This document shows positions 17,805-50,682 of a DNA stretch of 64,000 nucleotides, piece after piece (position 1 is the first letter of the stretch; each line of letters begins with the position of its first letter). Under the pieces are notes generated by a model. That model searched no databases. It was not told the DNA's origin and saw nothing but the letters and a program-made list of their open reading frames with translations. The stretch is from Clostridia bacterium (lineage in GTDB: Bacteria > Bacillota > Clostridia > Oscillospirales > CAG-272). The DNA is taken from the NCBI GenBank assembly GCA_017621415.1, contig JAGATD010000057.1, forward strand, positions 1,021-65,020. The letters are read 5' to 3'. The translations under genes and the position numbers were made by a program.

Positions 17805-17809
17805 CTTTC

Positions 17810-33208: not shown

Positions 33209-33625
33209 ATGAAATACAGTGAAAAGGTAATGGATCATTTCACCAATCCCAGAAATGTCGGTGAAATTGAAAATGCTGACGGAGTTGGCGTTGTAGGTAA
33301 TGCAAAGTGCGGAGATATAATGAAAATGTATCTCAAAATAGATGATAACGGAGTTATCACCGACTGCAAGTTCAAAACATTTGGCTGCGGCGCGGCAATC
33401 GCAACATCTTCTATGGCTACCGAGCTTGTTAAGGGACATACTGTTGAGGAGGCTCTTAAGCTTACCAACAAGGCGGTTGTTGAGGCTCTTGACGGACTTC
33501 CTCCCGTAAAGGTTCATTGCTCGGTTCTTGCTGAGGAGGCTATCAAGACAGCTGTCGCAGACTACTATAATAAGATTGGCAAGCCTGTTGATTTTGAAAT
33601 AGAAAAGTCTCACGAAGAGGAATAA
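33209..33625 (+). CDS. nifU: Fe-S cluster assembly scaffold, NifU/IscU type
   Basis: 138 aa. Three cluster cysteines in the contexts NAKCGD, FGCGAAIA and VHCSVLA. Confidence 0.93.
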   Translation: MKYSEKVMDHFTNPRNVGEIENADGVGVVGNAKCGDIMKMYLKIDDNGVITDCKFKTFGCGAAIATSSMATELVKGHTVEEALKLTNKAVVEALDGLPPVKVHCSVLAEEAIKTAVADYYNKIGKPVDFEIEKSHEEE

Positions 33626-33635
33626 ATGTTTTTTC

Positions 33636-33663
33636 AAACGGCTCTGCTATAAGAGCCGTTTTT
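33636..33663 (+). terminator. Rho-independent terminator after nifU
   Basis: Perfect 10-bp stem AAACGGCTCT/AGAGCCGTTT with a 6-nt loop and a T-rich tail. Confidence 0.75.
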
Positions 33664-33736
33664 CTTGTTGTTTCAACACAAGTCGAAGAATATGTTAACA
33701 ATTGTTGTCAAAAAATAGCTAAAATGGGGATTTGAA

Positions 33737-34756
33737 ATGAAAATTCTTGTAGGTTTAAGCGGTGGAGTTGACAGCGCATACGCAGCTTTAAAGCTTATCC
33801 GCGCAGGGCATACTGTAGAGGGCGCAATTCTTAAAATGCACGAGCATACCGATATTTTAAGCGCCCGCTCGGTTGCCTCTGAGCTTTGTATACCTCTTCA
33901 TGAAATTGATGTTACAAAGAGGTTTGAGGAGATAGTAAAAGAGGATCTTATTAACTGTTATCTTAACGGAAAAACTCCAAACCCTTGTATAATATGTAAC
34001 GAGAGAGTTAAGTTTGCGGCTCTTTATGAATATGCGGCGAAAAACGGCTTTGACAGGATTGCAACAGGCCATTATGCTATTGTTTCTGAGAAAAACGGCA
34101 GATTTGCTGTTGAAACAGCTCCCGATACACGTAAGGACCAAAGCTATATGCTCTATAGACTGCCTCAAAATATACTCTCAGCCCTTGTTTTGCCCATAGG
34201 GGAAGAGAATAAGGCAGATGTTCGTGCAAACTCGGCAGAGAGCGGTGTTTCGGTGGCAGGTAAAAAGGATAGCCAGGAAATATGCTTTCTTCCCGACGGC
34301 CATTATGCCGATTATATCGAAAATAAAATGGGAAAATCCCCCGAGGGCGACTTTGTTGACCCTGCAGGCAGAGTTCTCGGGCATCATAAAGGTATCATCA
34401 GATACACGGTAGGGCAGAGAAAGGGGCTGGGCATATCTCTAGGCAAGCGCGCGTTTGTTACAGATATTTCACCCGAAACCAATCAAATTACTCTGTCAAC
34501 AGAAATGACAGGAAAGACAGAAATCGAGTTATCAAGCATAGTATATTCGGGACTTGAGCCTCAGGCGGAAGCGACTGCTAGGTTCTTTGAAGTAAAGCTC
34601 AGATATACGGCCCCTCTTATAGGCTGCATGGCGCAGATGTATTCTGACGGTAGAGTAAGACTTGAATTCGAGAGTCCTGTGATATGCGCTCCGGGGCAGT
34701 CGGCGGTTCTTTATGATAACGGCAGGGTAATGCTTGGCGGCTATATTGAGCGCTGA
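33737..34756 (+). CDS. mnmA: tRNA 2-thiouridine(34) synthase
   Basis: 339 aa. PP-loop GLSGGVDS. Conserved CNERVKF and KDQSYML motifs. Confidence 0.93.
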   Translation: MKILVGLSGGVDSAYAALKLIRAGHTVEGAILKMHEHTDILSARSVASELCIPLHEIDVTKRFEEIVKEDLINCYLNGKTPNPCIICNERVKFAALYEYAAKNGFDRIATGHYAIVSEKNGRFAVETAPDTRKDQSYMLYRLPQNILSALVLPIGEENKADVRANSAESGVSVAGKKDSQEICFLPDGHYADYIENKMGKSPEGDFVDPAGRVLGHHKGIIRYTVGQRKGLGISLGKRAFVTDISPETNQITLSTEMTGKTEIELSSIVYSGLEPQAEATARFFEVKLRYTAPLIGCMAQMYSDGRVRLEFESPVICAPGQSAVLYDNGRVMLGGYIER

Positions 34757-35208: not shown

Positions 35209-35237
35209 TTGACTTCAAAAAAAACTTATGATATAAT
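35209..35237 (+). promoter_or_regulatory. Consensus sigma-A promoter of the 14-kb ABC/exoprotein operon
   Basis: TTGACT (35209-35214), 17 nt, TGaTATAAT (35229-35237). About 66-nt leader with GGAGG 10 nt before ATG 35304. Confidence 0.7.
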
Positions 35238-35303: not shown

Positions 35304-38300
35304 ATGAAAAAGTCGATCTTTATGAGAGTCGTTGCTATGATGCTTACCGTTGCGCTGATGCTTGGTGCCATTTCGGTTACCGCGTCTGCTGCGGGAATAT
35401 CCGATAGCATAGGCTCTTACAAGAACGAAAAGGGTTCGTCTCCTACGCTTGACGAGATGAAAAACCTCATGACGACTAAGACTTATGAGGATTACATTCT
35501 TGAAAAGCTCAGCGGTGAGAACGACCCTGCACGTACGCAAATCGCGATCAATACTTCATCTGCAGACAAGTTTGGAGACAACTTTACCAACGAGGTTAAG
35601 GTGTCTGACAGCGATGAGGTTCAGGCTTCTATCAAAGGAAGCTCCGCAAATTGGGAATCCTTTACCAAGGAGGACGGCGAGAAATCCTGGTTCCTTCCCT
35701 CGGTTAATCCTGACGGCAGCGCAGGTGTTGCGGAGTGGAGATTTGATGTGGATAAGCCCGGCTTCTACACAATCGAAATTGACTATTATGACTGCATTGT
35801 AGATGCAGACACCTACATTGATGAGAACGGCAATTTTGTTGAAATCAAAACAAAGAGCAGTGTCAGCGCAATCGAGCGCAAGCTCAGAATTGACGGTGTG
35901 GTTCCCTTTGATGAGGTTGGAAGCATAACCTTCGATAAGCACTGGAGATATGACTATGTCACAACTTCAGATCCTTACGAGGTTCCCGCAAGCGCTCGTC
36001 CCTTTACAGAAATCGGCTCCTATGCTGAATATGTTCAGATTGCCGAAGGCGAGGGTGCAGGTTACTATAAGTACGTAACCACCACCAAAATGGAGGGTGA
36101 CAAGATGATGCAGACCCTCACTACATATAAAATTAACCAGGACATAAACGGCAACTCTATGGCGCCGTCTGCTGTCGCTGTTTCACAGTGGTCCACCTAC
36201 ACCTGTAAGGACCCCTCCGGTTACAGCGAGGGCGCGCTTAAGTTCTATTTTAGTAACGGTCCTCACTCTATCTCTCTTGAGGCTATAAGAGAGCCCGTTA
36301 TTATTAAGGAAATAAGACTTGTGCCCGCCGAGGCTCCCAGCATTGAGTCCGAGTCATCGGGTAAAATGAGTTACAGCAATTATATTGCAGCTTACGACGG
36401 TGTTCCCACAATAAATGCTGCGCCTACCATTATTGAGGCAGAGTTCCCGGATCTTATTTCCGACTCCTCGGTTACTTCGACTAACGATAATACATCTGCA
36501 ATCACATATCCCATCAGCTCCAAGGCTCAGCTTTACAATGTAATAGGTGAGAACAGCTACAGCGCTATGGGTCAGTGGGCGGCATATAAGTTTACCGTAA
36601 GCGAAACCGGTCTTTACAAGCTTGGCGCAAGATTTAAGCAGGATACTCTTCAGGGTATGTTTATCTGCCGTGCTGTTAAGCTTGCCGGCGGTCAGTACGG
36701 TACTGTTCCGGATGCTCCCTTCGATGAGGCATACCGTGTGCGCTTCGGCTACGACGAGGAGTGGCAGTCCGAGTATATGGGCTTCTACAGCTACGAGTAT
36801 GATTCTGAAGGCAACAAGGTGCTTGACGATAACGGCAACCCTGTTCAGAACAAGACAGAGATCGAGCTTTATTTCGAGAAGGGCGTTGAATATACTCTCT
36901 ACTTCGAGTGCTCTCTCGGTGACCTTAAGGATTACATAAGAAGAGTAGAAACCGCGCTTGATGTAATCAACGAGTGCTACCTCAGAATACTTAAGCGTAC
37001 AGGCGCTGAGCCTGATAAGAACCAGGACTACAGCTTCCTTGATTATATGCCCGAGGTTCTTGTTAAACTTCTTGAGCAGTCAAAGGAGCTTACCAATGTT
37101 GCAGACGAGCTTGAGGCTCTTTGCGGCACAAACGGTTCTCATATAGCAACTCTTGACACTATTGCCCGTATCCTTACTCTTATGGGTTCTGACGGCGGTG
37201 AAAAGATTGCTGAAAATATGGCAAACCTTAAATCCTATCTCGGTACTCTCGGTACCTGGATAAACAGCTCTAAGTCCAGCTCGCTTATGCTTGATTCGAT
37301 TTACGTTGTTCCGGCAGACAGCGATGAGAATGCTATTCCTAACGCAAAAGCAAACTTCTTTGAGTCGATTTGGTTCGAGATTTCCTCCTTCATATATTCA
37401 TTCTTCACTGATTACGATAAGATGGGTCTTACCGAAGAAACAAGCGAGGGCGACGCGGCAGTAAGCGTTTGGCTCGCTATGGGTCGTGACCAGTCCCAGA
37501 TTTGGCGTTCTATGATAGACGCGACAGGCGGCTTCACCGATACATACGGCAAGGGTGTTGCTCTTAAGCTGGTTACAGCGGGAACACTTCTTCCCTCTAT
37601 CCTCTCGGGTAAGGGACCTGACGTTTACCTCGGTCTTAGCTCGGGTGAGGTTATTAACTATGCTATCCGTGATGCGATAATAGGTATCAGCGGAAATGCG
37701 GCTAATCTTACCGCCGAACAGAATGCGGTATTCACCAATTATTATTATATGGACGCAAACGGCAATGAAATCGTTCGAGAAAAGGCTCTCACTGCCGCCG
37801 AAATGGAGGCGCAGGGACTAATTTCTGTTTCCAACGGATACGATTATGCTACGAGAGAGGCGATATTTGCTCCTGCGGCAATGAAGACTCTCAGACTTTG
37901 CGATGTTGCCTACGGTATTCCTATGACAATGTCATTTGCTATGATGTTCTACCGTATGGACGTTCTCGGTAACCTTGGTGTTGAAATTCCCAAGACATGG
38001 GATGAGCTTATCGGCGCGCTTCCTGCTCTTCAGGCAAGTAATATGACGATAGGTGTATCTTATGTATCCGCTCTTGACTTCATGATTTATCAGATGGGCG
38101 AGAGTATGTGGAAGTATGAGAACGGCGATGAGTATGACTCCAGATGGGCAGGCGCTGAGATAAACCTCGACTCTAACATAGCCCTTGAGGCGTTTGAGAG
38201 AGTTTGTAGCTTCTACACCGAGCATTCTCTTCCTGTATCCTTCGATACCGCAAACCGTTTCAGAACCGGTGAAATGCCTATCACGGTAGGTGACTACATC

Positions 38301-38876
38301 AGTATTTATAACAGCCTTGTTGTATTTGCTTCTGAAATTGGCGGTCTCTGGCAGTTCGGCACACTTCCCGGTTCGGGCAAGGGTGAGACCTATAACAACG
38401 ATTCTCTTGCAAGCGTAACCGCAACAGTTCTTCTTAACGGTTGCCAGAAGAAGGGTAACGACACTCTTCTTGCGGCATGGCAGTTCGCTCAGTGGCAGAC
38501 CAGCCGTGAGATTCAGGCTAGCTACGGTAACAGCATAGTTGCTCTTATCGGTCCTGCCGCTAAGTACGAGACAGCGAACAAGCTTGCTATAAACGACCTT
38601 TCCTGGACAGCAAGCGAGAAGGCAGCTATCTCTGAGCAGATGGCAAATATGGACGCGATAGTTAACTATCCCGGCTCGTACATTATAGCAAGATATATGA
38701 AGTTTGCATTCCTTGATGCATACAATGACGGCACTCCTCCTCAGGAGGCTATGAAGCGCTATGTTGGTGCTATCAACACAGAGCTTACACGTAAGAGAGC
38801 AGAATTCGGCGACTTCCTCTTCAATGTTGAAGACGATCTTGAAGAAGGCCAGTCTGTTCCTAAGTTAGATCAGTAA
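35304..38876 (+). CDS. Giant extracellular solute-binding protein: signal peptide + two CBM-like beta-sandwich modules + helical linker + family-1 SBP domain
   Basis: 1190 aa. Signal peptide MKKSIFMRVVAMMLTVALMLGAISVTASA with no lipobox cysteine. Two modules carry the pattern AEWRFDVDKPGFYTIEIDYY and AAYKFTVSETGLYKLGARFK (about aa 100-340 and 375-540). The C-terminal 450 aa or so are SBP-like (VSVWLAMGRDQSQIW.., IPMTMSFAMMFYRMDVL.., KTWDELIGAL). Confidence 0.8.
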   Translation: MKKSIFMRVVAMMLTVALMLGAISVTASAAGISDSIGSYKNEKGSSPTLDEMKNLMTTKTYEDYILEKLSGENDPARTQIAINTSSADKFGDNFTNEVKVSDSDEVQASIKGSSANWESFTKEDGEKSWFLPSVNPDGSAGVAEWRFDVDKPGFYTIEIDYYDCIVDADTYIDENGNFVEIKTKSSVSAIERKLRIDGVVPFDEVGSITFDKHWRYDYVTTSDPYEVPASARPFTEIGSYAEYVQIAEGEGAGYYKYVTTTKMEGDKMMQTLTTYKINQDINGNSMAPSAVAVSQWSTYTCKDPSGYSEGALKFYFSNGPHSISLEAIREPVIIKEIRLVPAEAPSIESESSGKMSYSNYIAAYDGVPTINAAPTIIEAEFPDLISDSSVTSTNDNTSAITYPISSKAQLYNVIGENSYSAMGQWAAYKFTVSETGLYKLGARFKQDTLQGMFICRAVKLAGGQYGTVPDAPFDEAYRVRFGYDEEWQSEYMGFYSYEYDSEGNKVLDDNGNPVQNKTEIELYFEKGVEYTLYFECSLGDLKDYIRRVETALDVINECYLRILKRTGAEPDKNQDYSFLDYMPEVLVKLLEQSKELTNVADELEALCGTNGSHIATLDTIARILTLMGSDGGEKIAENMANLKSYLGTLGTWINSSKSSSLMLDSIYVVPADSDENAIPNAKANFFESIWFEISSFIYSFFTDYDKMGLTEETSEGDAAVSVWLAMGRDQSQIWRSMIDATGGFTDTYGKGVALKLVTAGTLLPSILSGKGPDVYLGLSSGEVINYAIRDAIIGISGNAANLTAEQNAVFTNYYYMDANGNEIVREKALTAAEMEAQGLISVSNGYDYATREAIFAPAAMKTLRLCDVAYGIPMTMSFAMMFYRMDVLGNLGVEIPKTWDELIGALPALQASNMTIGVSYVSALDFMIYQMGESMWKYENGDEYDSRWAGAEINLDSNIALEAFERVCSFYTEHSLPVSFDTANRFRTGEMPITVGDYISIYNSLVVFASEIGGLWQFGTLPGSGKGETYNNDSLASVTATVLLNGCQKKGNDTLLAAWQFAQWQTSREIQASYGNSIVALIGPAAKYETANKLAINDLSWTASEKAAISEQMANMDAIVNYPGSYIIARYMKFAFLDAYNDGTPPQEAMKRYVGAINTELTRKRAEFGDFLFNVEDDLEEGQSVPKLDQ

Positions 38877-38888: not shown

Positions 38889-39848
38889 ATGTCACAAGCA
38901 GAAACTAAAACAGTTGAGAAAAACAGACCCCTAAGACGTGACGAAATGTCTAAGCTTCAGTGGACCTGGAAGGAAATGAAGAGAAATAAGACGGCCTACT
39001 TTATGCTGTTTCCTTTCCTCATTCTCTTTATAGTATTTACAGTTCTCCCCGTTCTTCTTTCTATGTTCTTCAGTCTGACAGACTTTAATATGCTTCAGAC
39101 TCCCAACATGAAGGGCCTTGATAACTATATCAGGCTCTTCTTGGAGGACGAGATATTCATTCTTGCGATACAGAACACACTTATATTCGCGTGTATAACA
39201 GGTCCTGTATCCTACATTCTTTCGCTCTTGGTTGCTTGGTTCGTAAATGAGCTTCCCCCCAAGATCCGCGCGGTAGTTACTCTGGTATTCTACGCGCCCT
39301 CAATTTCCGGTCAGGTTTATCTGATTTGGAAAACTCTGTTCTCCTCCGACTCTTACGGTTGGGCGAACGCAACGCTTATGGACTTAGGACTTATAACGGC
39401 ACCGATACTCTGGTTTGAGGATGCGGCTTACGTTATGGCGCTTTGTATCGTGGTTGCTCTTTGGACATCCCTCGGTACAGCATTCCTCTCGTTCATCGCG
39501 GGCTTCCAGACCGTTGACCGTTCTATGTATGAGGCGGCTGCCGTTGACGGAATTAAAAACCGTTGGCAGGAGCTGTGGTATATTACACTTCCCACAATGC
39601 GTCCTCAGATGATGTTCGGTGCGGTGCTCGCTATCACAAACTCTTTCGGCTTCGGAGGTGTTGTTACCGCTCTTTGCGGATTCCCGTCGGTTGACTATGC
39701 GGCGCATACAATAATGCACCATCTTGATGACTATGGCGGACAGCGTTACGAGATCGGTTACGCTTCGGCAATAGCGGTTGTGCTCTTTATTATGATGTTT
39801 GCCTCTAACATTCTTGTTAAGAAGGCGCTCTCGAAGGTAGGTGAGTAG
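38889..39848 (+). CDS. Carbohydrate ABC transporter permease (MalF/UgpA-like), pair 1
   Basis: 319 aa, 6 TM. EAA loop YEAAAVDGIKNRWQELWYITLPTMRP. Confidence 0.9.
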   Translation: MSQAETKTVEKNRPLRRDEMSKLQWTWKEMKRNKTAYFMLFPFLILFIVFTVLPVLLSMFFSLTDFNMLQTPNMKGLDNYIRLFLEDEIFILAIQNTLIFACITGPVSYILSLLVAWFVNELPPKIRAVVTLVFYAPSISGQVYLIWKTLFSSDSYGWANATLMDLGLITAPILWFEDAAYVMALCIVVALWTSLGTAFLSFIAGFQTVDRSMYEAAAVDGIKNRWQELWYITLPTMRPQMMFGAVLAITNSFGFGGVVTALCGFPSVDYAAHTIMHHLDDYGGQRYEIGYASAIAVVLFIMMFASNILVKKALSKVGE

Positions 39849-39851: not shown

Positions 39852-40727
39852 ATGGCAAAGAAACTTCGTACCAGAGGACACAGAGTTGTCCTTAACCGTT
39901 CAGCCGGTGGTGACGCAGGTATAACCTTTATGCTCACCATCCTCGGTGTTATAATGTTCTTCCCGATGTACTACGTAGTAATTCAGTCTCTCAAGCCTCT
40001 TGACGAGCTGTTTATGTTCCCCCCCAGGTTCTATGTTATCAATCCTACATTTGATAACTTCTCAGAGCTGTTTACACTTATGAGCGACTCCTGGGTACCA
40101 TTCTCGAGATACATATTTAACACTGTATTCATTACTATCTGCGGTACTTGCGGAAACCTGGTTCTTGCTTCTATGGCGGCATACTCGCTTGCTAAGCTCA
40201 GATTCCCCGGCAGAAACGCAATATTCCAGATGATAGTTATGTCACTTATGTTCCACTCTACTGTTAACCAGGTAACCCACTTCATCATCCTTTCCGCATT
40301 CGGTTGGGTTGATACCTACCTCTCGGTTATTATCCCCTCAATGGCAGGTACCATGGGTCTTTACCTTATGAAGCAGTTTATGGAGTCGTCGGTACCGGAT
40401 ACGGTTCTTGAGTCTGCGCGACTTGACGGCGCAAGCGAATTCAGGACCTTCCTTATCATAGCAATGCCTATGGTTAAGCCCGCGTGGCTGACACTTATGA
40501 TCGAGTGCTTTAAGTCCCTTTGGAACTCGGGAGCATCAATTTATATCCACTCCGAGGAGCTTAAAACCTTTAACTATGCGATTAACCAGATCGTAACAGG
40601 CGGTATTGCCCGTTCGGGCGCCGGCGCCGCAGCGATAGTAATTATGATGATAGTTCCTATCGGTGTATTCGTTCTTAACCAGAGCCAGATCATTGAGACC
40701 ATGGGCTCTTCGGGTATGAAAGACTAA
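39852..40727 (+). CDS. Carbohydrate ABC transporter permease (MalG/UgpE-like), pair 1
   Basis: 291 aa, 6 TM. EAA loop LESARLDGASEFRTFLIIAMPMVKP. 3-nt gap from the previous gene. Confidence 0.9.
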   Translation: MAKKLRTRGHRVVLNRSAGGDAGITFMLTILGVIMFFPMYYVVIQSLKPLDELFMFPPRFYVINPTFDNFSELFTLMSDSWVPFSRYIFNTVFITICGTCGNLVLASMAAYSLAKLRFPGRNAIFQMIVMSLMFHSTVNQVTHFIILSAFGWVDTYLSVIIPSMAGTMGLYLMKQFMESSVPDTVLESARLDGASEFRTFLIIAMPMVKPAWLTLMIECFKSLWNSGASIYIHSEELKTFNYAINQIVTGGIARSGAGAAAIVIMMIVPIGVFVLNQSQIIETMGSSGMKD

Positions 40728-40741: not shown

Positions 40742-43735
40742 ATGAAAAATAGATTAGCTAAAATATTGATTCTGTCGCTCGTTGCGTTGTTGCTTTTCGG
40801 CAGCTTCACCTCCTCAGCGTATGAGTCTTATGACACTTATACCTATTCAATAGACGGAAAGCCTCTGGCTTCTCCTCACGCATTTACTCCCGAGCCCGAT
40901 ACTTATGATTCTAAGAGTATGGGACTCCTTGACGGTAACTATTGGCATTACGACTCAACCGGTGATGCTGTTATTTGGCCTCAGAAGGAGGTCAGCGCGG
41001 GATTTGAGTTTGTGTCTCCTCTTACATACAGCATGAAAGAAGACGGCACAGGACTTCTCGTTTCCTCTTACAAGGTTGACGAATCGGTTATCGATACTAT
41101 TGTAAGCATTCGCGAAGCATTCTCTGCGGTATACGGAGATCCTAATTCTAACAGTACTGTTAAAATTACCATACCTGTTGAGGATGTGGTTTACTCCGGT
41201 AACTCCTATGTAGAGCTTGACAATCTTTTGAAGCATGTCAACAGCCTTATTTTCGAAAGGGTTAAGGCTGCAGGTGAGGGTAAAAAGGTTACCTTAGCCG
41301 CAATTGATTATGCTTCGGTTTATCAGTCTGTTTACGATCAGCTCGGTTTTATGAGCGCAAGGGTTGCTATCCCTGAGGAAGTAGACGGTATTCCTGTTGT
41401 GGGAATAGCCGACGGTGCCTTTGCGGTTCCTGCGGTTGACGAATCCTGGTCTGATGTTAAAAAGGAAGTTTGTGAAAAGCTTTATAAGGATGTACTTGCT
41501 CAGATAGTTGGAATTCAGATTCCCGAGAGTGTTAAAACAATCGGCGCTTCTGCATTTGGCGGTACAACAGGTCTTACAACCGTATATTATCTTGGCGAAA
41601 ATGTGGCAGATTGGAACAAGGTTTCCTTTGATAGAAAAACCAATGCGTATTTTGCGAGAGCAAGTGTGTATTGCTATTCCGAATCCGAAAGATTTGGCAA
41701 TCTTGCTCTTGATAAAGCAGGAACGGCAGATATCGTGTCTGACGAGGACGGAAACCTTTATATTGCCGATAAGCCCAACAACAGAATTGTAATTCTTAAG
41801 GCTAATGACCTTAAGGTTATGGGTGTTATAAGCAACTATATTGACGGAAACAATAAGGACAGAGTTCTTAATTCTCCCTCCGGTGTTTATGTAACCAATT
41901 CCAAGCTTATGGTTGACGGTTCAAGCCGCCAGATATATGTTTGCGATACAGGTAACAAGAGCATAGTTGTATTTGATGAAAACTACAATTATATCAGAAC
42001 AATAGAGCAGGCACCTATTGCGGGTATGCTTGACGAGGGTGAGTTTGAGCCCAGCGCCGTTGCGGTTGATAAGTACGGCAGAATATTTGTTGTTTCCAGA
42101 ACCTGTTACAAGGGCATTATGGTTCTTTCAAGCGATGGAACCTTCACCGGATTTATCGGTGCGCAAAAGGTTACCACCGACTTTATGGATCAGATTTGGA
42201 AGAGCTTCCAGACGCTGGAGCAGAAGCAAAACTCTATTCTTCAGCTTCCCGAGCCCTTCAATAACCTGACAGTTGATGAAAACGGATTTGTTTACGCAAC
42301 CATCAGCTTCACAAAAGCTTCAGATCAGACACAGCAGCAATTAGCTCTTAAGTCAAAGCAACCTGCTTACTCTCCTGTTAAAAAGCTTAACTCCATGGGT
42401 GTTGAGATTATGAAGCGTAACGGCTTCTTCGATCCCGGCGGAGAGGTTATTGACACACTTTCTGCACAAAAGCAGGAGGTTTCTAAGATAATCGACGTGG
42501 CTATAGGAGACGAGGGCTCTTGGACAATACTTGACAGCTCAAGGCAGAGAACCTATACATATGACAAAAACGGTAACCTTTTGTTTGCATTTGGTAACAC
42601 CGGAGACCAGCTTGGTAACAATGCGTCTTGTATAGGAATTGCATATCAGCCGGTATATAATGAAGACGAAACAAACTATGAGGACTACAAGTACAATCTT
42701 GTAATGCTTGACAGCTCGGAGGTCGGTTGTTATGTTACTGTGTATAAGCCTACCGAGTATTGCGATATGATCATGAATGCTTTGCATAATGAAAATGACC
42801 ATAAATTCAGCGATACGATTAATTACTGGCAGGACGTTCTGACCCGTAACAACAACTTTGACCTTGCCTATATCGGTATAGGAAAAGCCCTTTACCACCT
42901 TGGTGAGTACGATGAGGCTATGGAGATGCTTTCCAGCGCATACGAGACCGAGTATTATGCTCTCGCATTTGCTGAGGTTCGTAAGGAATTTATTTCCAAG
43001 TTTATGGTTCCTCTTATTGTAGCTGTTCTCGCACTTATCGTGCTGTTCTTCAAGTTCCTTGGCTATGCCAAGAAGAGAAATAAGGCAACATCGCTTAAGG
43101 TTGGTAAAAAGACCTACGGCGAAGAAATGCTTTATGTGTTCCATCTTGTGTTCCATCCCTTCGACGGCTTCTGGGACCTTAAGCATGAAAAGCGCGGATC
43201 GGTCAGAGCGGCATCAACAATTCTCGGTATTACAATTGTAGCCTTCTTCTATCAGGCTATCGGTACCGGATATATGCACAATCCTAAGGGCGACTATTCT
43301 ACCGTATTTGTTCAGATAATCGCGGTAGTGGTTCCCGTTGTTCTTTGGATTGTAGGCAACTGGTGTCTTACTACGCTCTTTGACGGTGAGGGTAGCTTTA
43401 AGGATATTTATATCGCAACCTGCTATTCACTTGCTCCTCTTCCTTTGTTTGTAGTTCTTTCTACAGTGCTTTCAAACGTACTTACTGTTACAGAGGGCTC
43501 AATCCTGACTCTTCTTGTATCTCTCGGATACGTTTGGGTAGGACTTCTTCTGTTCTTCGGTATGGTGGTAACGCACGATTACTCAACCGGTAAGAACGTT
43601 ATCACAACACTCGGTACTATAGTTGCTATGGCGGTTATTATGTTCATTATACTCCTGTTCTCCAGCCTTGTAATGAAGATGGCAACCTTCCTTATCACAC
43701 TGTTTACTGAGATATTTAACCGTATTTTTACTTAG
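40742..43735 (+). CDS. Exported LRR(BspA-like)/NHL beta-propeller/TPR protein with C-terminal Yip1-like polytopic membrane domain
   Basis: 997 aa. Signal peptide. BspA-type LRR segments (IPEEVDGIPVVGIADGAFA, IQIPESVKTIGASAFGG). Repeated NHL-like blades (GNLYIADKPNNRIVIL, QIYVCDTGNKSIVVFD, GRIFVVSRTCYKGIMVL, GFVYATI, GNLLFAFG). TPR-like helix pair (LAYIGIGKALYHLGEYDEAMEML). One TM, then 5 TM preceded by FHPFDGFWDLK. Confidence 0.75.
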   Translation: MKNRLAKILILSLVALLLFGSFTSSAYESYDTYTYSIDGKPLASPHAFTPEPDTYDSKSMGLLDGNYWHYDSTGDAVIWPQKEVSAGFEFVSPLTYSMKEDGTGLLVSSYKVDESVIDTIVSIREAFSAVYGDPNSNSTVKITIPVEDVVYSGNSYVELDNLLKHVNSLIFERVKAAGEGKKVTLAAIDYASVYQSVYDQLGFMSARVAIPEEVDGIPVVGIADGAFAVPAVDESWSDVKKEVCEKLYKDVLAQIVGIQIPESVKTIGASAFGGTTGLTTVYYLGENVADWNKVSFDRKTNAYFARASVYCYSESERFGNLALDKAGTADIVSDEDGNLYIADKPNNRIVILKANDLKVMGVISNYIDGNNKDRVLNSPSGVYVTNSKLMVDGSSRQIYVCDTGNKSIVVFDENYNYIRTIEQAPIAGMLDEGEFEPSAVAVDKYGRIFVVSRTCYKGIMVLSSDGTFTGFIGAQKVTTDFMDQIWKSFQTLEQKQNSILQLPEPFNNLTVDENGFVYATISFTKASDQTQQQLALKSKQPAYSPVKKLNSMGVEIMKRNGFFDPGGEVIDTLSAQKQEVSKIIDVAIGDEGSWTILDSSRQRTYTYDKNGNLLFAFGNTGDQLGNNASCIGIAYQPVYNEDETNYEDYKYNLVMLDSSEVGCYVTVYKPTEYCDMIMNALHNENDHKFSDTINYWQDVLTRNNNFDLAYIGIGKALYHLGEYDEAMEMLSSAYETEYYALAFAEVRKEFISKFMVPLIVAVLALIVLFFKFLGYAKKRNKATSLKVGKKTYGEEMLYVFHLVFHPFDGFWDLKHEKRGSVRAASTILGITIVAFFYQAIGTGYMHNPKGDYSTVFVQIIAVVVPVVLWIVGNWCLTTLFDGEGSFKDIYIATCYSLAPLPLFVVLSTVLSNVLTVTEGSILTLLVSLGYVWVGLLLFFGMVVTHDYSTGKNVITTLGTIVAMAVIMFIILLFSSLVMKMATFLITLFTEIFNRIFT

Positions 43736-43755: not shown

Positions 43756-46700
43756 ATGAAATTTAATAAAATATTGTCATCCGCACTTGTTTTGGTAATG
43801 CTTCTTTCAAGCATTATGGCGGTTATCCCCGTAAGCGCATCGGCAGCTGATAACAAGCAGGTCGTTGTGAATATGGGAGAGGTTGATCCTGCTAAAAACA
43901 GCAGCGATTACCTTGCAAAGTTTGTAAAGGAAGAATACCTCAATTACAGATATTCCACTGCTGAAGAAATGCTTAAGGAAGAGCTTGAAAAGGGTAATCT
44001 TGACTCTGTATCAGCCGGCGGGTATATCCTTTATATCAATAGATACACAGGCTTTGTATTCTATCAGAACACAAAAACCGGTCAGATACTTACAAGTAAT
44101 CCCACCGACCCCGGAACATCTGGCAGCAGCCTTGACTATTCTGTACTCAGCCAGATCGATATCGACTATAAGGACGTTTCGGATTCTTCCAGCATTGTTC
44201 CTCTGACTTATAAGAGCCTTGAGCAGCTTGAGAACGGATTTGCTCTCTCTCTGTCGCCTATCGCAACTCAGCCTGACGGCAGAGCCGGAATTTCTGTCAA
44301 GTACACCTTGGGTGAAAACGCGGCAAATTACCGTGTTCCCAAGTATATCACCGAGGCTGATTTCAGAGACCACATTGTAAATCCTATGTTTAAGAAGATT
44401 GCTGCTGCTGTAGAGCAGTATTGCGGAGATGTAAGCTTTGACAGCGACCTTAGCGATAATGATGATATCTTCTATCAGGGATATTATGACGGCGGTGTAA
44501 TAAACAGAAAGCTTAATGTTATATCTGCAAATGCCGCAGTTTATGCCAGCGCAGCAGGAAAGATCATTATTGACAAGTATGTTAAGGCTATAAACGACGT
44601 GTTCTCGGCTTACGGATACACTTCATCTGCCGCTGCATTGAAGTCAGGCAACCAGACTCTTCTTACCGAGGTTCCCGTTCTTAGAGACGGTGTGAATGTT
44701 TACAGCATCAAGAATAATAACACAACAACATACAAGCTTGCGAACAACGCGCTTGTTGATATTCTTGGTGATGATTATACCAAGGATGACGCAGCTGAGG
44801 ATTTCGCAGCTACCGGATGCCTTAAAAATGAGGATATAAACGTAGCAAGCTTCGTTGTTTCTATCAACTATACTCTTAGTCCTGATGGCGAGCTTTACTA
44901 CGAGATTCCCATGAGCGCTCCTTATTTTGTAAACAATAACCCCAACTTCTCAATTGTTTCCTTGAAGCCTCTCAGATACTTCGGCGCGGGTATTAAAACA
45001 AATGAGGGATACATCTTCTTCCCCGACGGAAGCGGAACTGTTGTAAACTTTGATAAGATCAACACTATTCAGGCAGACTACAACTCAGCAGTTTACGGAA
45101 ATGACTACGGTTATTCTTCTCTTGACCCCACCAGAGCTCACTTTGAGCAGGTAACTATGCCTGTGTTTGGTATAGTTAACGAGGTTAAAGCAAATGCTGC
45201 AACTGCGTCTCTTGAAAATGTAGAAACTATCACCAACGGCTTCTTTGCGATAGTTGAAGAGGGCTCAAGCCTTATGAACCTTTCTTTCAACGGTTCGTCG
45301 CACAAATATATATCTGCGGCAGCGGTATATAAGCCTCACCCCATGGATATCAGAGACCTTTCTGAGACTCTTTCGGCAGGCGCCAGCGGAAAGTATTTTA
45401 TCGTTTCCGAGGCTAAGTATGAGGGTAATTACAAAACCAAGATAGTAATGCTCCGTGATGAAAAGCTTGCAGGATTTGAACCCGCAGCTTATGAGCCCAC
45501 CTATGTAGGTATGGCTAACTGCTATAGGGATTATCTTTTGAACAAAGGTATTATCGGACAAAATAACAATAATACCAAAAATGATATTCCTCTTTACATA
45601 GAGGTTCTTGGAGCTATGGACGTTACTCAGAAGATTCTCTCTTTCCCTGTGGTTATGTCTACTCCTCTCACTACATTTGATAATGTTGCTACAATGTACT
45701 CCGGCTTTGCTGAGTTGGGTGTAAAGAATGTTAACTTCCGTCTTACCGGCTTTGCTAACGGCGGTATGGCTGCAACCTATCCGGTAAAGGCAAGTTGGCA
45801 GAATTCCTTGGGCGGAAAGAAGGGACTCGAGAACCTTGTTGATGAAGCCGAGGAGATTAACGCTAAGAATGACGGCTCAAACTTGGGCTTGTACCCTGAT
45901 TTTGATTTCCTTTATATCCATAATACCGCACTCTTTGACGGTGTAAGCTATAGAGGAACCGTTGCTGTCATGGTTGATAACAGATATGCATCAAAGCAGT
46001 CCTTCAACGCAGTGCTCCAGCTTTACGAATCAATATTCGCAATGGTAGTTTCTCCCGATTCCTATGACGGTCTTTACGATAAGTTTAATAAAGACTACTC
46101 GAAGTACGGCCTTACAGGTCTTTCGGTAGCAACTCTCGGTTCAGAGCTTAACTCGAACTTTGATATCGATAATTCCATCAACCGTGAGTCGGCTCTCGCT
46201 TATACAAAGAGCCTTCTCGGAAGAATTTCTGAAGAGTATTCTGTTATGACAGACATTGGTAATGTTTACGCAATGAGATATGCTGACCATGTGCTTAACG
46301 CGCCTGTCGACTCCAGCCATTACAAATATTCTTCATATACCGTTCCGTTCTACGGTATGGTATTCCACAGCTATGTTAATTACGCAGGTTCTCCCATCAA
46401 CTATTCCGGTTCTCCTGACTACAATATTCTTCGCGCTATTGAAAACGGAGCGAACCTCCAGTACATTCTTTGCTATGAAAACACTAACTATCTTAAGGCA
46501 GATGCTACTCTTTCTAAGTATTACGGTGTTGACTACAAGAACTGGAAGGATATAATCGTTAAGCAGTACAATCAGCTTAATGCAGCTATAGGCGATGTTC
46601 AGGATAACATTATAACCGATCACAGACCTCTTATAGCTGAGAGAGTTGTGGACAGATACGAAATGTATTCTAATTACTCGGTTCTTATTAACGAATTTGT

Positions 46701-47304
46701 TGAACATGCAGAAACGAAGTTTGAGGCAGAAATTTCAGCTATCGCAGCCGATCTTCGTGCAAACGGAGGATTTGAGGGTAAGACCGGTCTTTGGGTTAAT
46801 ATCGACATTAACTCTGTTGAAGCGGGAATACTTAAAGCGCTTAACATAACAACAGCACAGGCTAAATCCTATAATCTTAATACCTCTGAGCTTAAGCTCT
46901 TCGGTATTGACGGTGAGAGTCAGTCGCTTTATAACGTAATTCTCAGAGTTGCAAGACTGTTCGTAGAGAAGTTTGAGGCAGCTTATCCCGAAGATGCTAA
47001 CAGCTATAAGATCAATCTTTCTGCTGAAACGGTTGAGTACAAGTCCAAGTTCAAGTTTGAAACAACATCTTATGCTGTTGATAAGAACTATGAGACCACA
47101 TCTTACACCTGCAGCAACAACAATGTTGTTATGGTAACTTATACCGATGCTGATACAGGCGCCGCGACAATATTCTTTATCAACTTTAACACATATGATG
47201 TAAAGCTTAAGCTTGATACAGAATTCTATCCCGGAATTGAAAAGCTTGTAGATGACAAGGGTTACTTTACCGTTGAAGCAACGGATTATGTAAAAATTAA
47301 GTAA
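43756..47304 (+). CDS. Large secreted protein of unknown function (1182 aa)
   Basis: Signal peptide MKFNKILSSALVLVMLLSSIMAVIPVSASA. No lipobox, no LPXTG, no C-terminal TM. No catalytic motif I can recognise. From memory it resembles proteins annotated as DUF5696, but this is unverified. Confidence 0.7.
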   Translation: MKFNKILSSALVLVMLLSSIMAVIPVSASAADNKQVVVNMGEVDPAKNSSDYLAKFVKEEYLNYRYSTAEEMLKEELEKGNLDSVSAGGYILYINRYTGFVFYQNTKTGQILTSNPTDPGTSGSSLDYSVLSQIDIDYKDVSDSSSIVPLTYKSLEQLENGFALSLSPIATQPDGRAGISVKYTLGENAANYRVPKYITEADFRDHIVNPMFKKIAAAVEQYCGDVSFDSDLSDNDDIFYQGYYDGGVINRKLNVISANAAVYASAAGKIIIDKYVKAINDVFSAYGYTSSAAALKSGNQTLLTEVPVLRDGVNVYSIKNNNTTTYKLANNALVDILGDDYTKDDAAEDFAATGCLKNEDINVASFVVSINYTLSPDGELYYEIPMSAPYFVNNNPNFSIVSLKPLRYFGAGIKTNEGYIFFPDGSGTVVNFDKINTIQADYNSAVYGNDYGYSSLDPTRAHFEQVTMPVFGIVNEVKANAATASLENVETITNGFFAIVEEGSSLMNLSFNGSSHKYISAAAVYKPHPMDIRDLSETLSAGASGKYFIVSEAKYEGNYKTKIVMLRDEKLAGFEPAAYEPTYVGMANCYRDYLLNKGIIGQNNNNTKNDIPLYIEVLGAMDVTQKILSFPVVMSTPLTTFDNVATMYSGFAELGVKNVNFRLTGFANGGMAATYPVKASWQNSLGGKKGLENLVDEAEEINAKNDGSNLGLYPDFDFLYIHNTALFDGVSYRGTVAVMVDNRYASKQSFNAVLQLYESIFAMVVSPDSYDGLYDKFNKDYSKYGLTGLSVATLGSELNSNFDIDNSINRESALAYTKSLLGRISEEYSVMTDIGNVYAMRYADHVLNAPVDSSHYKYSSYTVPFYGMVFHSYVNYAGSPINYSGSPDYNILRAIENGANLQYILCYENTNYLKADATLSKYYGVDYKNWKDIIVKQYNQLNAAIGDVQDNIITDHRPLIAERVVDRYEMYSNYSVLINEFVEHAETKFEAEISAIAADLRANGGFEGKTGLWVNIDINSVEAGILKALNITTAQAKSYNLNTSELKLFGIDGESQSLYNVILRVARLFVEKFEAAYPEDANSYKINLSAETVEYKSKFKFETTSYAVDKNYETTSYTCSNNNVVMVTYTDADTGAATIFFINFNTYDVKLKLDTEFYPGIEKLVDDKGYFTVEATDYVKIK

Positions 47305-47318: not shown

Positions 47319-48305
47319 ATGAGTAATAATGTAAAATTAACTACAGAAAAAAAGTCGCCTTTAGATTTTTTAAAGCATATATTTAGGCGCAGAGCGTCTC
47401 TTGATGCAAGAAAGGCAAGGGCGGGCTACGTATTCGTGCTCCCCTTCCTCCTCGGTATAGTTCTGATATACCTTCCTATACTTATCGACTCCCTTTGGTT
47501 CAGCTTCAGCCAGATTTCGGCAACGAGTGACGGTACAGGCAGACTTAACATTGTGTCTGTTGGTTTTGAAAACTATGTTAAGCCCTTTAACACACCGGGA
47601 TTTACCGAGGCGCTTCTCGCAGGACTTCAGCAGCTTTTGTTTGAGGTTCCCGCAATTATCGTATTCTCTCTGTTTATTGCGGTCGTTCTTAACCAAAAAA
47701 TGCTCGGTAGAGCTATGTTCCGTGCGATATTCTTCGTTCCTGTTATTATATCCACAGGTATTATGATGGACTTCTCCGCAGGCGGTCAGAATGATATGTC
47801 AGGCGCGGTAGGCGGAGAAACAAACTCCGGTACAGGCGAAGGCGGAGCAAGCGAAATTATTTCGGTTCTTGACGTTCAGCAGCTGTTTGCAAGCATGAAA
47901 ATAGGCGGAGAGCTTGTTACATACGTTGTAGGAATAGTAAATAACGTGTATAACATTATCAACTACTCCGGTGTTCAGATGCTTATTTTCCTTGCCGGTC
48001 TTCAGTCTATATCTCCTTCGATATATGAAGCCTGCCGTATAGACGGCGCTACAGGTTGGGAGACATTCTGGAAGATTACATTCCCTATGATATCTCCTAT
48101 GATTCTTGTAAATGCTGTATACACGGTTATCGACTCCTTTACCAGAACCAACAACCCGGCGATGCGATTTATTCAAAATGCCTTTGCTCTGCAGCCTGAA
48201 ATGTCAACAGCGATGTATTGGATGTACTTCCTGATTATTGCTTTGATAATAGTAGTTGTTGCGGGAATTGCATCATCCTTCGTGTTCTATCAGAGAAAGG
48301 ATTAA
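47319..48305 (+). CDS. Carbohydrate ABC transporter permease (MalF-like), pair 2
   Basis: 328 aa. EAA loop YEACRIDGATGWETFWKITFPMISP. Unusual Gly/Ser/Glu-rich insert AGGQNDMSGAVGGETNSGTGEGGASE (about nt 47769-47859). Confidence 0.88.
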   Translation: MSNNVKLTTEKKSPLDFLKHIFRRRASLDARKARAGYVFVLPFLLGIVLIYLPILIDSLWFSFSQISATSDGTGRLNIVSVGFENYVKPFNTPGFTEALLAGLQQLLFEVPAIIVFSLFIAVVLNQKMLGRAMFRAIFFVPVIISTGIMMDFSAGGQNDMSGAVGGETNSGTGEGGASEIISVLDVQQLFASMKIGGELVTYVVGIVNNVYNIINYSGVQMLIFLAGLQSISPSIYEACRIDGATGWETFWKITFPMISPMILVNAVYTVIDSFTRTNNPAMRFIQNAFALQPEMSTAMYWMYFLIIALIIVVVAGIASSFVFYQRKD

Positions 48306-48318: not shown

Positions 48319-49407
48319 ATGGAATCAACAAAAACAACAATAACAAAAGAAACAAAAAATAAGATTCAGGTTGATTATGAAGGTAAGCTCTCCACCAAAG
48401 AGCGTTTGCTTAACAAAATCAAGGCATCCAACACCTGGATAACGGCAATCGTAAATGTGTTTAAGTTTATACTGATGCTTGGTGTATCTTTCGTAATTAT
48501 TTATCCCTTTATCACCAAGATAGCAGGTTCATTTATGTCGCCTAACGACCTGGCCGACGTTACAGTATCTCTTATTCCCAGAGATTTTAACATAGACCAG
48601 TATAAGTACATAATCCAGGATAACGGATATTTCTTCCACATAGATGACCTTGGACAACAGCACCTTGGCGCATTCTTCCACACACTCTTCCTTTCGCTTA
48701 TCTGCGCGGCAATTCAGACTATGGTAGCCTGTCTTGTAGGATACGGTATTGCCAAGTTCAAGTTTAAGGGTAATGTTGCTGTAATGGTTGCCGTTGTGGT
48801 AACAATGATTATTCCTCACAGCGCGCTTCAGCTCGCTTTCAGACAGCACTTTATTTCCTTTGATATTGCGCATGTAATGTCTACGGGAAATATGGGTATT
48901 ATCCAGACTTTAACAGGCGGCAAGAATATCGAGCTGATAAACACCTATTGGCCGTTTATCATAATGTCGCTTGGCGGTATAGCCTTTAAGAACGGTCTTT
49001 ATATCTATATGATGCGTCAGTTCTTTAAGGGTGTTCCCGATGAGCTTGAGGAGTCTGCGTATGTTGACGGCTCGGGTACATTCCGTACCTTTGTTCAGAT
49101 CATACTTCCTCTCTCCGTGCCTATGATGATAACAATATTCCTGTTCTCATTCTCATGGCAGTGGACAGACCAGTTCTATACAAATCTGTTCTTCGAGGGC
49201 GCAGACGCACCTTGGACAATGCCTAAGATCGTATCGCTTCCTGCTTCTCTTGAAATTCTCTATACAGGTCACCCTGTACTCAAAATGTTTACTACAGTAG
49301 TAGAGAACACAGCCAGCCTTATGATCATACTTCCTCTCGTTATTATGTACCTCTTCTGCCAGAAGTACCTGGTACAGGGTATCGAGCGTTCGGGTCTCGT
49401 AGGCTAA
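48319..49407 (+). CDS. Carbohydrate ABC transporter permease (MalG-like), pair 2
   Basis: 362 aa. Start moved to ATG 48319 (MESTKTT) behind AAGGAGGTG. EAA loop EESAYVDGSGTFRTFVQIILPLSVP. Long polar N-terminal extension. Confidence 0.88.
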   Translation: MESTKTTITKETKNKIQVDYEGKLSTKERLLNKIKASNTWITAIVNVFKFILMLGVSFVIIYPFITKIAGSFMSPNDLADVTVSLIPRDFNIDQYKYIIQDNGYFFHIDDLGQQHLGAFFHTLFLSLICAAIQTMVACLVGYGIAKFKFKGNVAVMVAVVVTMIIPHSALQLAFRQHFISFDIAHVMSTGNMGIIQTLTGGKNIELINTYWPFIIMSLGGIAFKNGLYIYMMRQFFKGVPDELEESAYVDGSGTFRTFVQIILPLSVPMMITIFLFSFSWQWTDQFYTNLFFEGADAPWTMPKIVSLPASLEILYTGHPVLKMFTTVVENTASLMIILPLVIMYLFCQKYLVQGIERSGLVG

Positions 49408-49544: not shown

Positions 49545-49575
49545 AGGAGAGCTCTCTTGAGGGCTCTCCTTTTTT
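49545..49575 (+). terminator. Rho-independent terminator of the 14-kb operon
   Basis: Stem AGGAGAGC/GCTCTCCT (49545-49552/49563-49570), then TTTTT. Confidence 0.75.
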
Positions 49576-49744: not shown

Positions 49745-50563
49745 GTGAGAACATCATTTAATATTGAAAAGCTTTCGGCATTTTTAAAAAGCTTTTATAC
49801 CGTTACGGGCATAAAAATTTCTGTTTTTGACGATGAGTTTAACCACATAATCGAATATCCCGCGCCTATGATAGAATACTGTTCTTTAATTCGTCGCACC
49901 GAGCAGGGGACTGAAGGCTGTCGTAACTGCGATATTGCCGCATTTAGAGAAGCAAAGCGCAGAAGAGGACTTTATATTTATACCTGCCATGCGGGAATGA
50001 CAGAGGTTGTTTCTCCGATAATGCTAAATGACGGAATTTTGGGTTATGTAATTTTATCTCATATGTTGCCAAAGGAGACTTTCGATTCAGCAGTTGAATA
50101 TGCCCTGGGCAGGGCAGAGAGCTACGGAGTCAGCAGATGCGAGGCGCTTCCCGCCATAGAAAAAATGACCCCTACAGATTATGAAAAAATTGAGGCTGCA
50201 TCAAGACTCCTTGATGCAATCACAACCTATTTAAGAGTGACAAATTGGGTAAGCTGGCGCAACGACGATCTTGCATATTCTATTTCAAAATATATAGATG
50301 AAAATTTAGGCTCACACTTGAATACTGAAAACCTATGCAACGTGTTTTATATTTCCAGAACAAAGCTTCACCAAATATCAACCACTGCATACGGAGTAAG
50401 CATTACAAAATACATTCTTGATAAGAGAATGAAAAAGGCAAGAGAACTTCTTCGTATGGGAAAATCGGTAGAGAGTGTTGCCGAGGAGGTAGGATTTTCA
50501 ACTGCAAATTATTTTAGCAAGGTCTTTCACCGCGAGTGCGGTATACTCCCAAGCAAATTCTGA
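49745..50563 (+). CDS. AraC-family transcriptional regulator with N-terminal PocR-type sensory domain
   Basis: 272 aa. GTG start behind GGAGGG. The PocR-like Cys-containing region is CSLIRRTEQGTEGCRNCD..YTCHAGMTEVVSPI. C-terminal AraC HTH (VAEEVGFSTANYFSKVFHRECG). Confidence 0.85.
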   Translation: MRTSFNIEKLSAFLKSFYTVTGIKISVFDDEFNHIIEYPAPMIEYCSLIRRTEQGTEGCRNCDIAAFREAKRRRGLYIYTCHAGMTEVVSPIMLNDGILGYVILSHMLPKETFDSAVEYALGRAESYGVSRCEALPAIEKMTPTDYEKIEAASRLLDAITTYLRVTNWVSWRNDDLAYSISKYIDENLGSHLNTENLCNVFYISRTKLHQISTTAYGVSITKYILDKRMKKARELLRMGKSVESVAEEVGFSTANYFSKVFHRECGILPSKF

Positions 50564-50619
50564 GTTAATGCAAAAATGTTCAATAATAAATAAATATGTA
50601 CAGTGTTTTTAATCACCGG

Positions 50620-50648
50620 TTGACACAATAAGTTTTTTTTGATACCAT
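50620..50648 (+). promoter_or_regulatory. Candidate promoter of the isomerase/epimerase pair
   Basis: TTGACA (50620-50625), 17 nt, TGaTACCAT (50640-50648). Confidence 0.45.
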
Positions 50649-50682
50649 AAAATTAACATTGATATATTAAAGGAGTGTTATA

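Follow-up and report, generated by a model that had tools for sequence, protein, structure and literature searches.

The DNA analyzed here, referred to as the window, is a stretch of 64,000 nucleotides (nt) from a Clostridia bacterium (GTDB lineage Bacteria; Bacillota; Clostridia; Oscillospirales; CAG-272), covering positions 1,021 to 65,020 of the forward strand of contig JAGATD010000057.1 in GenBank assembly GCA_017621415.1. Coordinates are those of the window unless a locus name precedes them. The window contains an operon of seven plus-strand genes, separated by intergenic gaps of 3 to 20 nt, in the order solute-binding protein (SBP), permease A1, permease B1, NHL-Yip1 protein, DUF5696 protein, permease A2, and permease B2. 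The fourth gene is the subject of this report. It encodes a 997-amino-acid (aa) protein in which an NHL beta-propeller and tetratricopeptide repeat (TPR)-like helices are joined through a transmembrane helix to a Yip1 membrane domain. The gene is flanked on both sides by pairs of BPD_transp_1 permeases, and it therefore does lie inside an ATP-binding cassette (ABC) importer operon, as the original prediction, made from the sequence alone, had stated. The genes and signals of the operon are as follows.

35209-35237, plus strand: promoter-like site, TTGACT, 17-nt spacer, TATAAT, with a TG extension (11 of 12 consensus matches)
35304-38876, plus strand: giant secreted SBP, 1190 aa; signal peptide without lipobox, C-terminal family-1 sugar SBP domain
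38889-39848, plus strand: permease A1, MalF/UgpA-like, CUT1 type; EAA motif at aa 215
39852-40727, plus strand: permease B1, MalG/UgpE-like; EAA motif at aa 187
40742-43735, plus strand: NHL-propeller/TPR/Yip1 membrane protein, 997 aa; open reading frame (ORF) boundaries exact
43756-47304, plus strand: secreted DUF5696 protein, 1182 aa; Pfam E value 1e-126, signal peptide, no lipobox
47319-48305, plus strand: permease A2; EAA motif at aa 237
48319-49407, plus strand: permease B2, 362 aa from the ATG at 48319; EAA motif at aa 245
49545-49570, plus strand: terminator-like hairpin after the last gene, 11-bp stem with 6 GC pairs, followed by a T-run

The promoter-like site, located 67 nt upstream of the first gene, and the terminator-like hairpin are pattern matches only. 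The ATG of the NHL-Yip1 gene is preceded, at a distance of 8 nt, by a strong Shine-Dalgarno sequence (aaggagg). All four permeases are of the MalF/UgpA or MalG/UgpE type, with a BPD_transp_1 domain and an EAA coupling motif, and the two permease pairs are only 22 to 26% identical to one another. No gene for a MalK/MsmX-type ATPase was found in the 64-kb window, where the sole ABC ATPase is an exporter-type fusion (26813-28735). Importers of the Bacillota usually rely on a shared ATPase encoded elsewhere, and so the absence of such a gene from the window is compatible with membership among the CUT1 importers. For permease B2, the ORF list gave a TTG start at 48256, with a 50-nt overlap into the preceding gene; translation from the ATG at 48319 yields a 362-aa product, in agreement with the gene call on a contig that encodes an identical NHL-Yip1 protein.

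Distribution and synteny of the cassette

The fusion is not rare; it belongs to a large family that is already catalogued by NCBI under the name "YIP1 family protein." More than 760 close homologs were present in a collection clustered at 90%, and a HMMER search of 50%-identity representatives returned 1205 clusters at an E value of 1e-30 or lower. Among the top 150 of these 1205 clusters, nearly all were full-length proteins of about 700 aa that spanned the propeller, the TPR region, the transmembrane helix, and Yip1. The 997-aa form in the window is a minority variant of this core of about 700 to 730 aa, with an insert (aa ~66 to 320) between the N-terminal motif and the propeller. Homologs carry a variety of database names, including YIP1 family protein, nuclease PIN, SMP-30/gluconolactonase/LRE family protein, serine/threonine-protein kinase PknD, streptogramin lyase, DUF1282 domain protein, and TPR repeat protein. 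Several Paenibacillus genomes encode two paralogs, for example, P0460 and P0461 in P. hamazuiensis. A literature search found no paper on the cassette, on DUF5696 (PF18952), or on the NHL-Yip1 fusion.

A scan using one genome per species identified at least 581 confirmed loci. Synteny was assessed in 80 of these species-representative loci (45 to 88% identity) by matching their ORFs to the seven proteins of the window. All 80 are from metagenome-assembled genomes of Clostridia, Eubacteriales, or Oscillospiraceae type, and where a source is stated, it is animal gut or rumen. The gene order described above was found in all 80 loci, the sole departures occurring where a contig ends, and it was also present in two relatives (L001 and L003). 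At greater distances, one-to-one orthologs of every component of the cassette were recovered from Butyrivibrio fibrisolvens D1 plasmid pNP243 and from a Paenibacillus cellulosilyticus plasmid, with NHL-Yip1 identities of 26 to 42%, and the same order was found in Ruminiclostridium hungatei, Cohnella thermotolerans, Marinicrinis lubricantis, and Paenibacillus naphthalenovorans. A search begun from a divergent DUF5696 protein arrived at the identical cassette. The original prediction had named scattering of the orthologs away from ABC permeases as the outcome that would count against it. The orthologs are instead found in the same gene order at all related loci examined, in 80 genomes and five distant genera, which strongly supports linkage to ABC permeases.

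These observations bear directly on whether the NHL-Yip1 gene encodes a functionally unlinked surface protein that is merely cotranscribed with two independent sugar ABC transporters. The genes flanking the cassette do vary by lineage (glycoside hydrolase [GH] family 43, GH106/GH88, luciferase-like oxidoreductases, or none), which speaks for this reading. However, the slot between permease B1 and DUF5696 is invariant at every locus examined, in three Bacillota orders and at identities as low as 26%, and such invariance would be very unlikely without selection for cofunction. We consider an unlinked protein to be highly improbable, and chance colocation of the gene is effectively refuted by the synteny. 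The NHL-Yip1 protein is very probably a dedicated component of the cassette.

MalK-type ATPase genes (OB_MalK/TOBE) are located immediately upstream of the SBP gene in some lineages, with one such gene in Bacilli and two in R. hungatei:

L089, 2886-5145 (R. hungatei): MalK-type genes
L088, 5873-6982: MalK-type gene
L090, 4120-5229: MalK-type gene
L091, 4012-5127: MalK-type gene
L093, 4126-5235: MalK-type gene

The R. hungatei genes are in tandem and equal in number to the permease pairs. No ATPase gene is annotated beside the Butyrivibrio cassette, and the lineage of the window has none close by. At the latter locus (L087, 11755-13850; B. fibrisolvens D1 pNP243, NZ_CP146964), the ortholog of the NHL-Yip1 gene is annotated as two coding sequences. 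The first encodes a 498-aa NHL repeat protein that ends just past transmembrane helix 1, and the second encodes a 206-aa YIP1 protein that begins just ahead of FHPFDGFW; the two share 22 nt, and the reading frame shifts by +1 between them within the cytoplasmic linker. The split is either a natural fission at a domain boundary or the result of a 1-nt indel or sequencing error.

Domain layout of the NHL-Yip1 protein

The protein can be divided into the following segments.

40742-40816, plus strand: signal peptide, aa 1-25, a hydrophobic core and then TSSA, with the cut before YE; identified by eye and hydropathy
40817-40936, plus strand: N-terminal motif, aa 26-65, YESYDTYTYSIDG.PL.SP.A; invariant in close relatives, kept family-wide, low model confidence
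40937-41701, plus strand: variable insert, aa 66-320, beta/alpha fold with a weak BspA-type leucine-rich repeat (LRR) signal; missing from the 700- to 730-aa form
41714-42751, plus strand: six-bladed NHL beta-propeller, aa 325-670; Pfam, PDB sequence search, AlphaFold2 (AF2), and Foldseek
42755-42940, plus strand: two TPR-like helical hairpins, aa 672-733; PDB sequence match, AF2, and Pfam matches of relatives
42998-43060, plus strand: transmembrane helix 1, aa 753-773, predicted to cross from outside to inside; hydropathy and AF2
43061-43207, plus strand: basic cytoplasmic linker, aa 774-822, 11 K+R, with the invariant HLVFHPFDGFWDLKHEKRGS motif; alignment and charge
43208-43729, plus strand: Yip1 five-helix membrane core, aa 823-996; Pfam, hydropathy, and AF2

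By profile and by predicted fold, the protein is a bona fide member of both the Yip1 and the NHL families. The Pfam Yip1 profile (PF04893) matched aa 801 to 969, starting inside the linker, with a score of 53.9 bits (cut-off, 28.6; E value, 2.6e-14) and a span of profile positions 2 to 171 out of 173; all 29 relatives matched it as well. The hydropathy plot showed a signal-like N-terminal segment, a strong transmembrane peak at aa 755 to 773, and five more hydrophobic segments between aa 823 and 978. In an AF2 model built with 29 homologs (mean predicted local distance difference test score [pLDDT], 74; predicted TM-score [pTM], 0.56), a single long helix spans aa 737 to 784 and a helical bundle spans aa 792 to 996, with the Yip1 helices at aa 821 to 846, 853 to 881, 886 to 913, 916 to 944, and 949 to 996. 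The lone transmembrane segment at aa 753 to 773 and the five further membrane segments of a Yip1-like domain were thus read correctly from the sequence, and a signal peptide is likewise indicated. The domain is a five-helix Yip1 unit with a predicted cytoplasmic N-terminal segment, its orientation beyond the first transmembrane helix being deduced from hydropathy and linker charge.

The propeller, predicted earlier as five or six blades at aa 325 to 670, was confirmed. The Pfam NHL profile scored 35.5 bits against a cut-off of 20, a PDB sequence search matched the NHL domain of Thin (E value, 4.4e-8) and PknD (1rwi; E value, 0.007), and the AF2 model is beta-rich from aa 328 to 670. Foldseek matched the model to the six-bladed NHL propellers of TRIM71, TRIM2/3, Brat, and Thin in the PDB, with E values down to 3e-14 and target TM-scores of 0.72 to 0.75. 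For the TPR-like helices, the Pfam matches (TPR_19, 18.7 bits; TPR_1, 16.1 bits; aa 688 to 732) were both below the cut-off, a PDB consensus TPR matched with an E value of 2.9e-6, the model has four helices at aa 672 to 733, and 20 of the 29 relatives matched TPR_1. It is therefore likely that two TPR-like hairpins are present, and the helix pair originally proposed probably holds in substance.

The LRR segments that had been proposed at aa 205 to 290 fared less well. AF2 gave a confident alternating beta/alpha domain at aa 45 to 320. Within it, LRR_5 matched aa 255 to 296 with 16.3 bits (E value, 0.009), below the cut-off of 27.7, and PDB entry 4gt6 matched aa 254 to 298 with an E value of 0.003. 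The LRR_5 threshold is exceeded, at about 36 bits, by 3 of the 29 relatives that have an insert of this kind, in a stretch that may or may not correspond to this region of the window protein. The Foldseek matches of the whole model were filled by propellers. These data weakly support an LRR character for the insert. Among the four Pfam families that had been expected, Yip1 and NHL exceeded their cut-offs, whereas TPR and LRR_5 did not.

Six-bladed propellers of this type raise the question of whether the ectodomain is a membrane-anchored exo-enzyme (a lactonase, a lyase, or another glycan-modifying enzyme) that preprocesses the substrate, with Yip1 serving as a mere anchor near the transporter. 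The Pfam SGL family (SMP-30/gluconolactonase) was matched by 5 of the 29 relatives and is recorded for most Paenibacillus homologs, some of them annotated as lactonase or streptogramin lyase, and Foldseek also matched Drp35 lactonase and virginiamycin B lyase at E values of about 2e-8. In addition, each propeller blade has one conserved Asp, and these residues line the propeller. However, the per-blade Asp is part of the structural NHL repeat consensus, and the best sequence and fold matches are noncatalytic NHL domains, with target TM-scores of 0.72 to 0.75 versus about 0.6 for the enzymes. A plain anchor also would not need a five-helix membrane domain and an invariant cytoplasmic motif that are conserved as strongly as the permeases. 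We think it unlikely that the protein is such an exo-enzyme.

Conserved motifs and conservation gradient

Three motifs are kept throughout the family, at identities as low as 24%. The first, Y.TY.Y...G....SP.AY.P, follows immediately after the signal peptide; the second, HPFDGFW..K.E.RGS, lies in the basic linker with its 11 K+R residues and is predicted to be cytoplasmic; and the third, NWCLTTL.DGEG.F.DI, is in the Yip1 core. The linker motif had been picked out previously, and it lies (FHPFDGFWDLKHEKRG) at aa 804 to 819, where it is invariant across the 29 relatives; the invariant cytoplasmic motif of the protein is FHPFDGFWDLKHEKRGS. At the other end of the protein, residues 15 to 42 have pLDDT values below 50 in the model despite the invariant motif sequence there, a combination that is compatible with a role in partner binding or strand closure. 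The N-terminal motif (aa 26 to 65) could be the "velcro" strand of the propeller or a partner-binding peptide.

The rate of divergence differs markedly along the cassette. Median identities to the proteins of the window across the 80 loci were as follows.

Permease pair 1: 74%
Permease pair 2: 54 to 58%
NHL-Yip1 protein, transmembrane helix 1 and linker: 68%
NHL-Yip1 protein, Yip1 core: 58%
NHL-Yip1 protein, TPR region and N-terminal motif: 54 to 55%
NHL-Yip1 protein, propeller: 46%
SBP: 39%
DUF5696: 37.5%

By this measure, the membrane and cytoplasmic half of the NHL-Yip1 protein evolves like the translocator core, and its ectodomain is intermediate between the translocator core and the fast-evolving exoproteins.

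The location of the conserved motifs is relevant to the possibility that the protein is a substrate receptor or gate, in which the propeller would bind glycan or the loaded SBP and Yip1 would relay a signal to the translocator(s) or the shared ATPases. According to the predicted topology, those invariant motifs that belong to the Yip1 part face the cytoplasm, where the coupling helices and ATPases are located, and an extracellular NHL propeller on a transmembrane helix is the layout of the Mycobacterium tuberculosis PknD sensor, to which the propeller was matched in the PDB sequence search (1rwi; E value, 0.007). Against this, the protein has no recognizable signaling or output domain, the topology past transmembrane helix 1 is derived solely from hydropathy and linker charge, and nothing separates a receptor from a passive scaffold. 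A receptor or gate seems a rather improbable role on this balance.

The two secreted proteins

The original prediction had described the SBP as untethered, and the SBP indeed has no lipobox in 67 of 70 orthologs (3 of 70 have one), whereas the two ordinary SBPs encoded beside the Butyrivibrio cassette are lipoproteins with classical lipoboxes. The DUF5696 protein likewise has no lipobox in 78 of 79 orthologs (1 of 79 has one). The N-terminal signal peptides of both proteins end in AxA-type sites at which cleavage may be presumed. A lipoprotein or C-terminal transmembrane anchor was considered for both proteins and ruled out, as neither a lipobox (in nearly all orthologs) nor a C-terminal transmembrane helix is present. 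An unanchored SBP of a monoderm cell has to be retained in another way. Within the cassette, the propeller-TPR ectodomain is the sole extracellular module with a membrane anchor.

The C-terminal ~400 aa of the SBP are a family-1 sugar-binding domain, with a profile match to Lin1841 (5ysb) at an E value of 1.8e-20. A search with the single sequence gave weak matches to sugar SBPs, and orthologs match SBP_bac_1. The N-terminal ~750 aa (35304-37550) matched no Pfam family beyond chance level and no PDB sequence. This extension contains many aromatic and acidic residues that are invariant across 29 orthologs.

For the DUF5696 protein, sequence searches of the PDB with both the single sequence and a profile gave no significant match. 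The best Foldseek match of its AF2 model (pLDDT, 74, dropping below 50 in parts of the barrel) was the GH129 3,6-anhydro-D-galactosidase 5opq, with an E value of 2.8e-19 and a target TM-score of 0.59; further matches were to the GH129 enzyme NagBb and to GH101, GH31, and GH97. The predicted fold of DUF5696 thus resembles that of glycosidases (GH129/GH101/GH31-like). Its conserved acidic residues include D424, D450, D531, E616, and D717.

Comparison with known systems

The original prediction held that bacterial Yip1-domain proteins have no demonstrated function. This does not hold, since Bacillus subtilis YknW is described as a Yip1-family accessory subunit of the YknWXYZ ABC exporter that modulates the assembly of YknXYZ, affecting both the oligomeric state of YknX and the interaction of YknX with YknYZ. 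Like YknW, the NHL-Yip1 protein is a polytopic membrane protein of the Yip1 family encoded within an ABC transporter operon. The two differ in that YknW is small and membrane-only, whereas the NHL-Yip1 protein has a 730-aa ectodomain; in that the partner of YknW is a MacB-type exporter with a membrane-fusion protein, whereas the presumed partner of the NHL-Yip1 protein is an SBP-dependent importer; and in that the NHL-Yip1 protein is always accompanied by DUF5696 and a second permease pair.

The transporter itself is similar to CUT1 importers such as MalEFGK2, UgpBAEC, and MsmEFGK in its MalF/UgpA and MalG/UgpE permeases, EAA motifs, and family-1 SBP and in the MalK-type ATPases beside orthologous cassettes. 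In contrast to these importers, the cassette has two divergent permease pairs per operon, its SBP, at 1190 aa, is not a lipoprotein and starts with a long extension, and there are two extra invariant components, the NHL-Yip1 and DUF5696 proteins. The propeller shares its fold and repeat signature with those of TRIM71/Lin41, TRIM2/3, Brat, and the sensor domain of PknD, the last of which is displayed outside the membrane on a transmembrane helix. However, the partners of the eukaryotic propellers are RNA or unknown ligands and that of PknD is a kinase, whereas here the propeller is fused to TPR and Yip1 and is linked to a transporter. The eukaryotic Yip1/YIPF proteins are Rab GTPase-associated trafficking factors of the Golgi and endoplasmic reticulum. 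They have the Pfam Yip1 domain, the five transmembrane helices, and a cytoplasmic N-terminal part in common with the NHL-Yip1 protein but no propeller fusion; to our knowledge, bacteria do not have such Rab partners. Lastly, the joint encoding of a binding protein, a glycosidase-like protein, and a transporter, with their presumed assembly at the cell surface, is reminiscent of the Sus-like utilisomes of Bacteroidota (SusCD, surface glycan-binding proteins, and glycosidases). This is an analogy only, as the components are not homologous, the Sus system uses an outer-membrane TonB-dependent transporter rather than a monoderm ABC importer, and assembly in the present case is hypothetical.

A proposed role as an accessory scaffold subunit

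We hypothesize that the NHL-Yip1 protein is an accessory scaffold subunit in which Yip1 sits on the translocator core and the ectodomain holds the SBP and/or DUF5696 over the translocators, a reading to which we assign a probability of about 0.5. It would be part of a composite sugar-uptake machine of the Bacillota consisting of two CUT1-type translocators (A1B1 and A2B2), the giant SBP that is not lipid anchored, DUF5696, one or more MalK-type ATPases, and the NHL-Yip1 protein itself. The ATPase genes would be those beside the cassette in some lineages and would be located elsewhere in the genome from which the window derives. In this scheme, the five-helix Yip1 domain and the invariant cytoplasmic motif would pack against the permease and/or ATPase core, while transmembrane helix 1 would keep the propeller-TPR ectodomain at the membrane surface. 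The ectodomain would then act as a scaffold that retains and positions the two untethered exoproteins, and possibly glycan too, above the translocators. The original prediction had similarly suggested a dock for these exoproteins. We infer both the physical association and the tethering, which may be analogous to the action of YknW in modulating the assembly of the YknXYZ exporter.

Several points weigh against a scaffold. If the hydrophobic segments at their N termini are not cleaved, the SBP and DUF5696 could anchor themselves, making a tether unnecessary. Propellers of this six-bladed type also occur as enzymes (lactonases and lyases), and some relatives match the SGL and Vgb-lyase models. 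The analogy to YknW is one of shared Pfam family and operon context alone. Finally, a pTM of 0.56 means that the arrangement of the domains relative to one another in the AF2 model is unreliable.

The scaffold hypothesis can be extended, more tentatively, to a Gram-positive "utilisome" in which Yip1 would bridge the two ABC translocators and the ectodomain would tether the SBP and a glycosidase-like exo-enzyme, such that glycan capture, trimming, and import would take place in one complex. This is possible, but we hold it with distinctly less confidence than the scaffold itself. If it is true, bacterial Yip1 proteins may be general assembly subunits of ABC transporters, in importers as well as exporters.

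Genes surrounding the cassette

The operon of the window is surrounded (16563-24428, 26813-28735, 30803-34756, and 49745-52978) mostly by chromosomal core genes of a Bacillota organism, which encode Dxr, an RseP-like M50 protease, IspG, PolC (1481 aa), an exporter-type ABC half-transporter, ROK, IscS, NifU, and MnmA. The ROK-IscS-NifU-MnmA block lies upstream of the cassette and is syntenic in relatives L001 and L003. Downstream are genes for an AraC/PocR regulator, a fucose isomerase-like protein, and a sugar-phosphate isomerase/epimerase-like protein, which may or may not be tied to the substrate. In Paenibacillus and Cohnella, the flanking regions (L088, 18273-23737; L090, 867-3557; L093, 438-1772 and 16303-21788) encode several flavin oxidoreductases of the luciferase-like LLM class, along with additional SBPs and an aldo/keto reductase, but no glycoside hydrolases. 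Genes for GH106 and GH88 follow the cassette in Marinicrinis, and a GH43 gene precedes it in Butyrivibrio. Different lineages may take up different substrates, or the substrate may be something other than a simple glycan.

Significance

SBP-dependent ABC importers are textbook machines of four or five components. The NHL-Yip1 protein is real, widespread, and catalogued but as yet uncharacterized, and it is probably an accessory component. What sets the cassette apart is that an SBP-dependent ABC importer is combined with invariant accessory proteins for which no precedent is known. The importer model would be extended to include an additional, invariant membrane subunit whose ectodomain is large, as well as a second translocator and a partner of glycosidase-like fold. 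Along with YknW, the protein would also make two independent bacterial Yip1 proteins that act with an ABC transporter, and its recognition as such would tidy the inconsistent names under which homologs are filed ("gluconolactonase," "nuclease PIN," and "PknD"). At least several hundred species carry the cassette, among them abundant Oscillospiraceae-type Clostridia of the gut and rumen as well as culturable Paenibacillus and Ruminiclostridium, and this spread makes the proposed machine relevant to glycan use in the gut and open to genetic testing.

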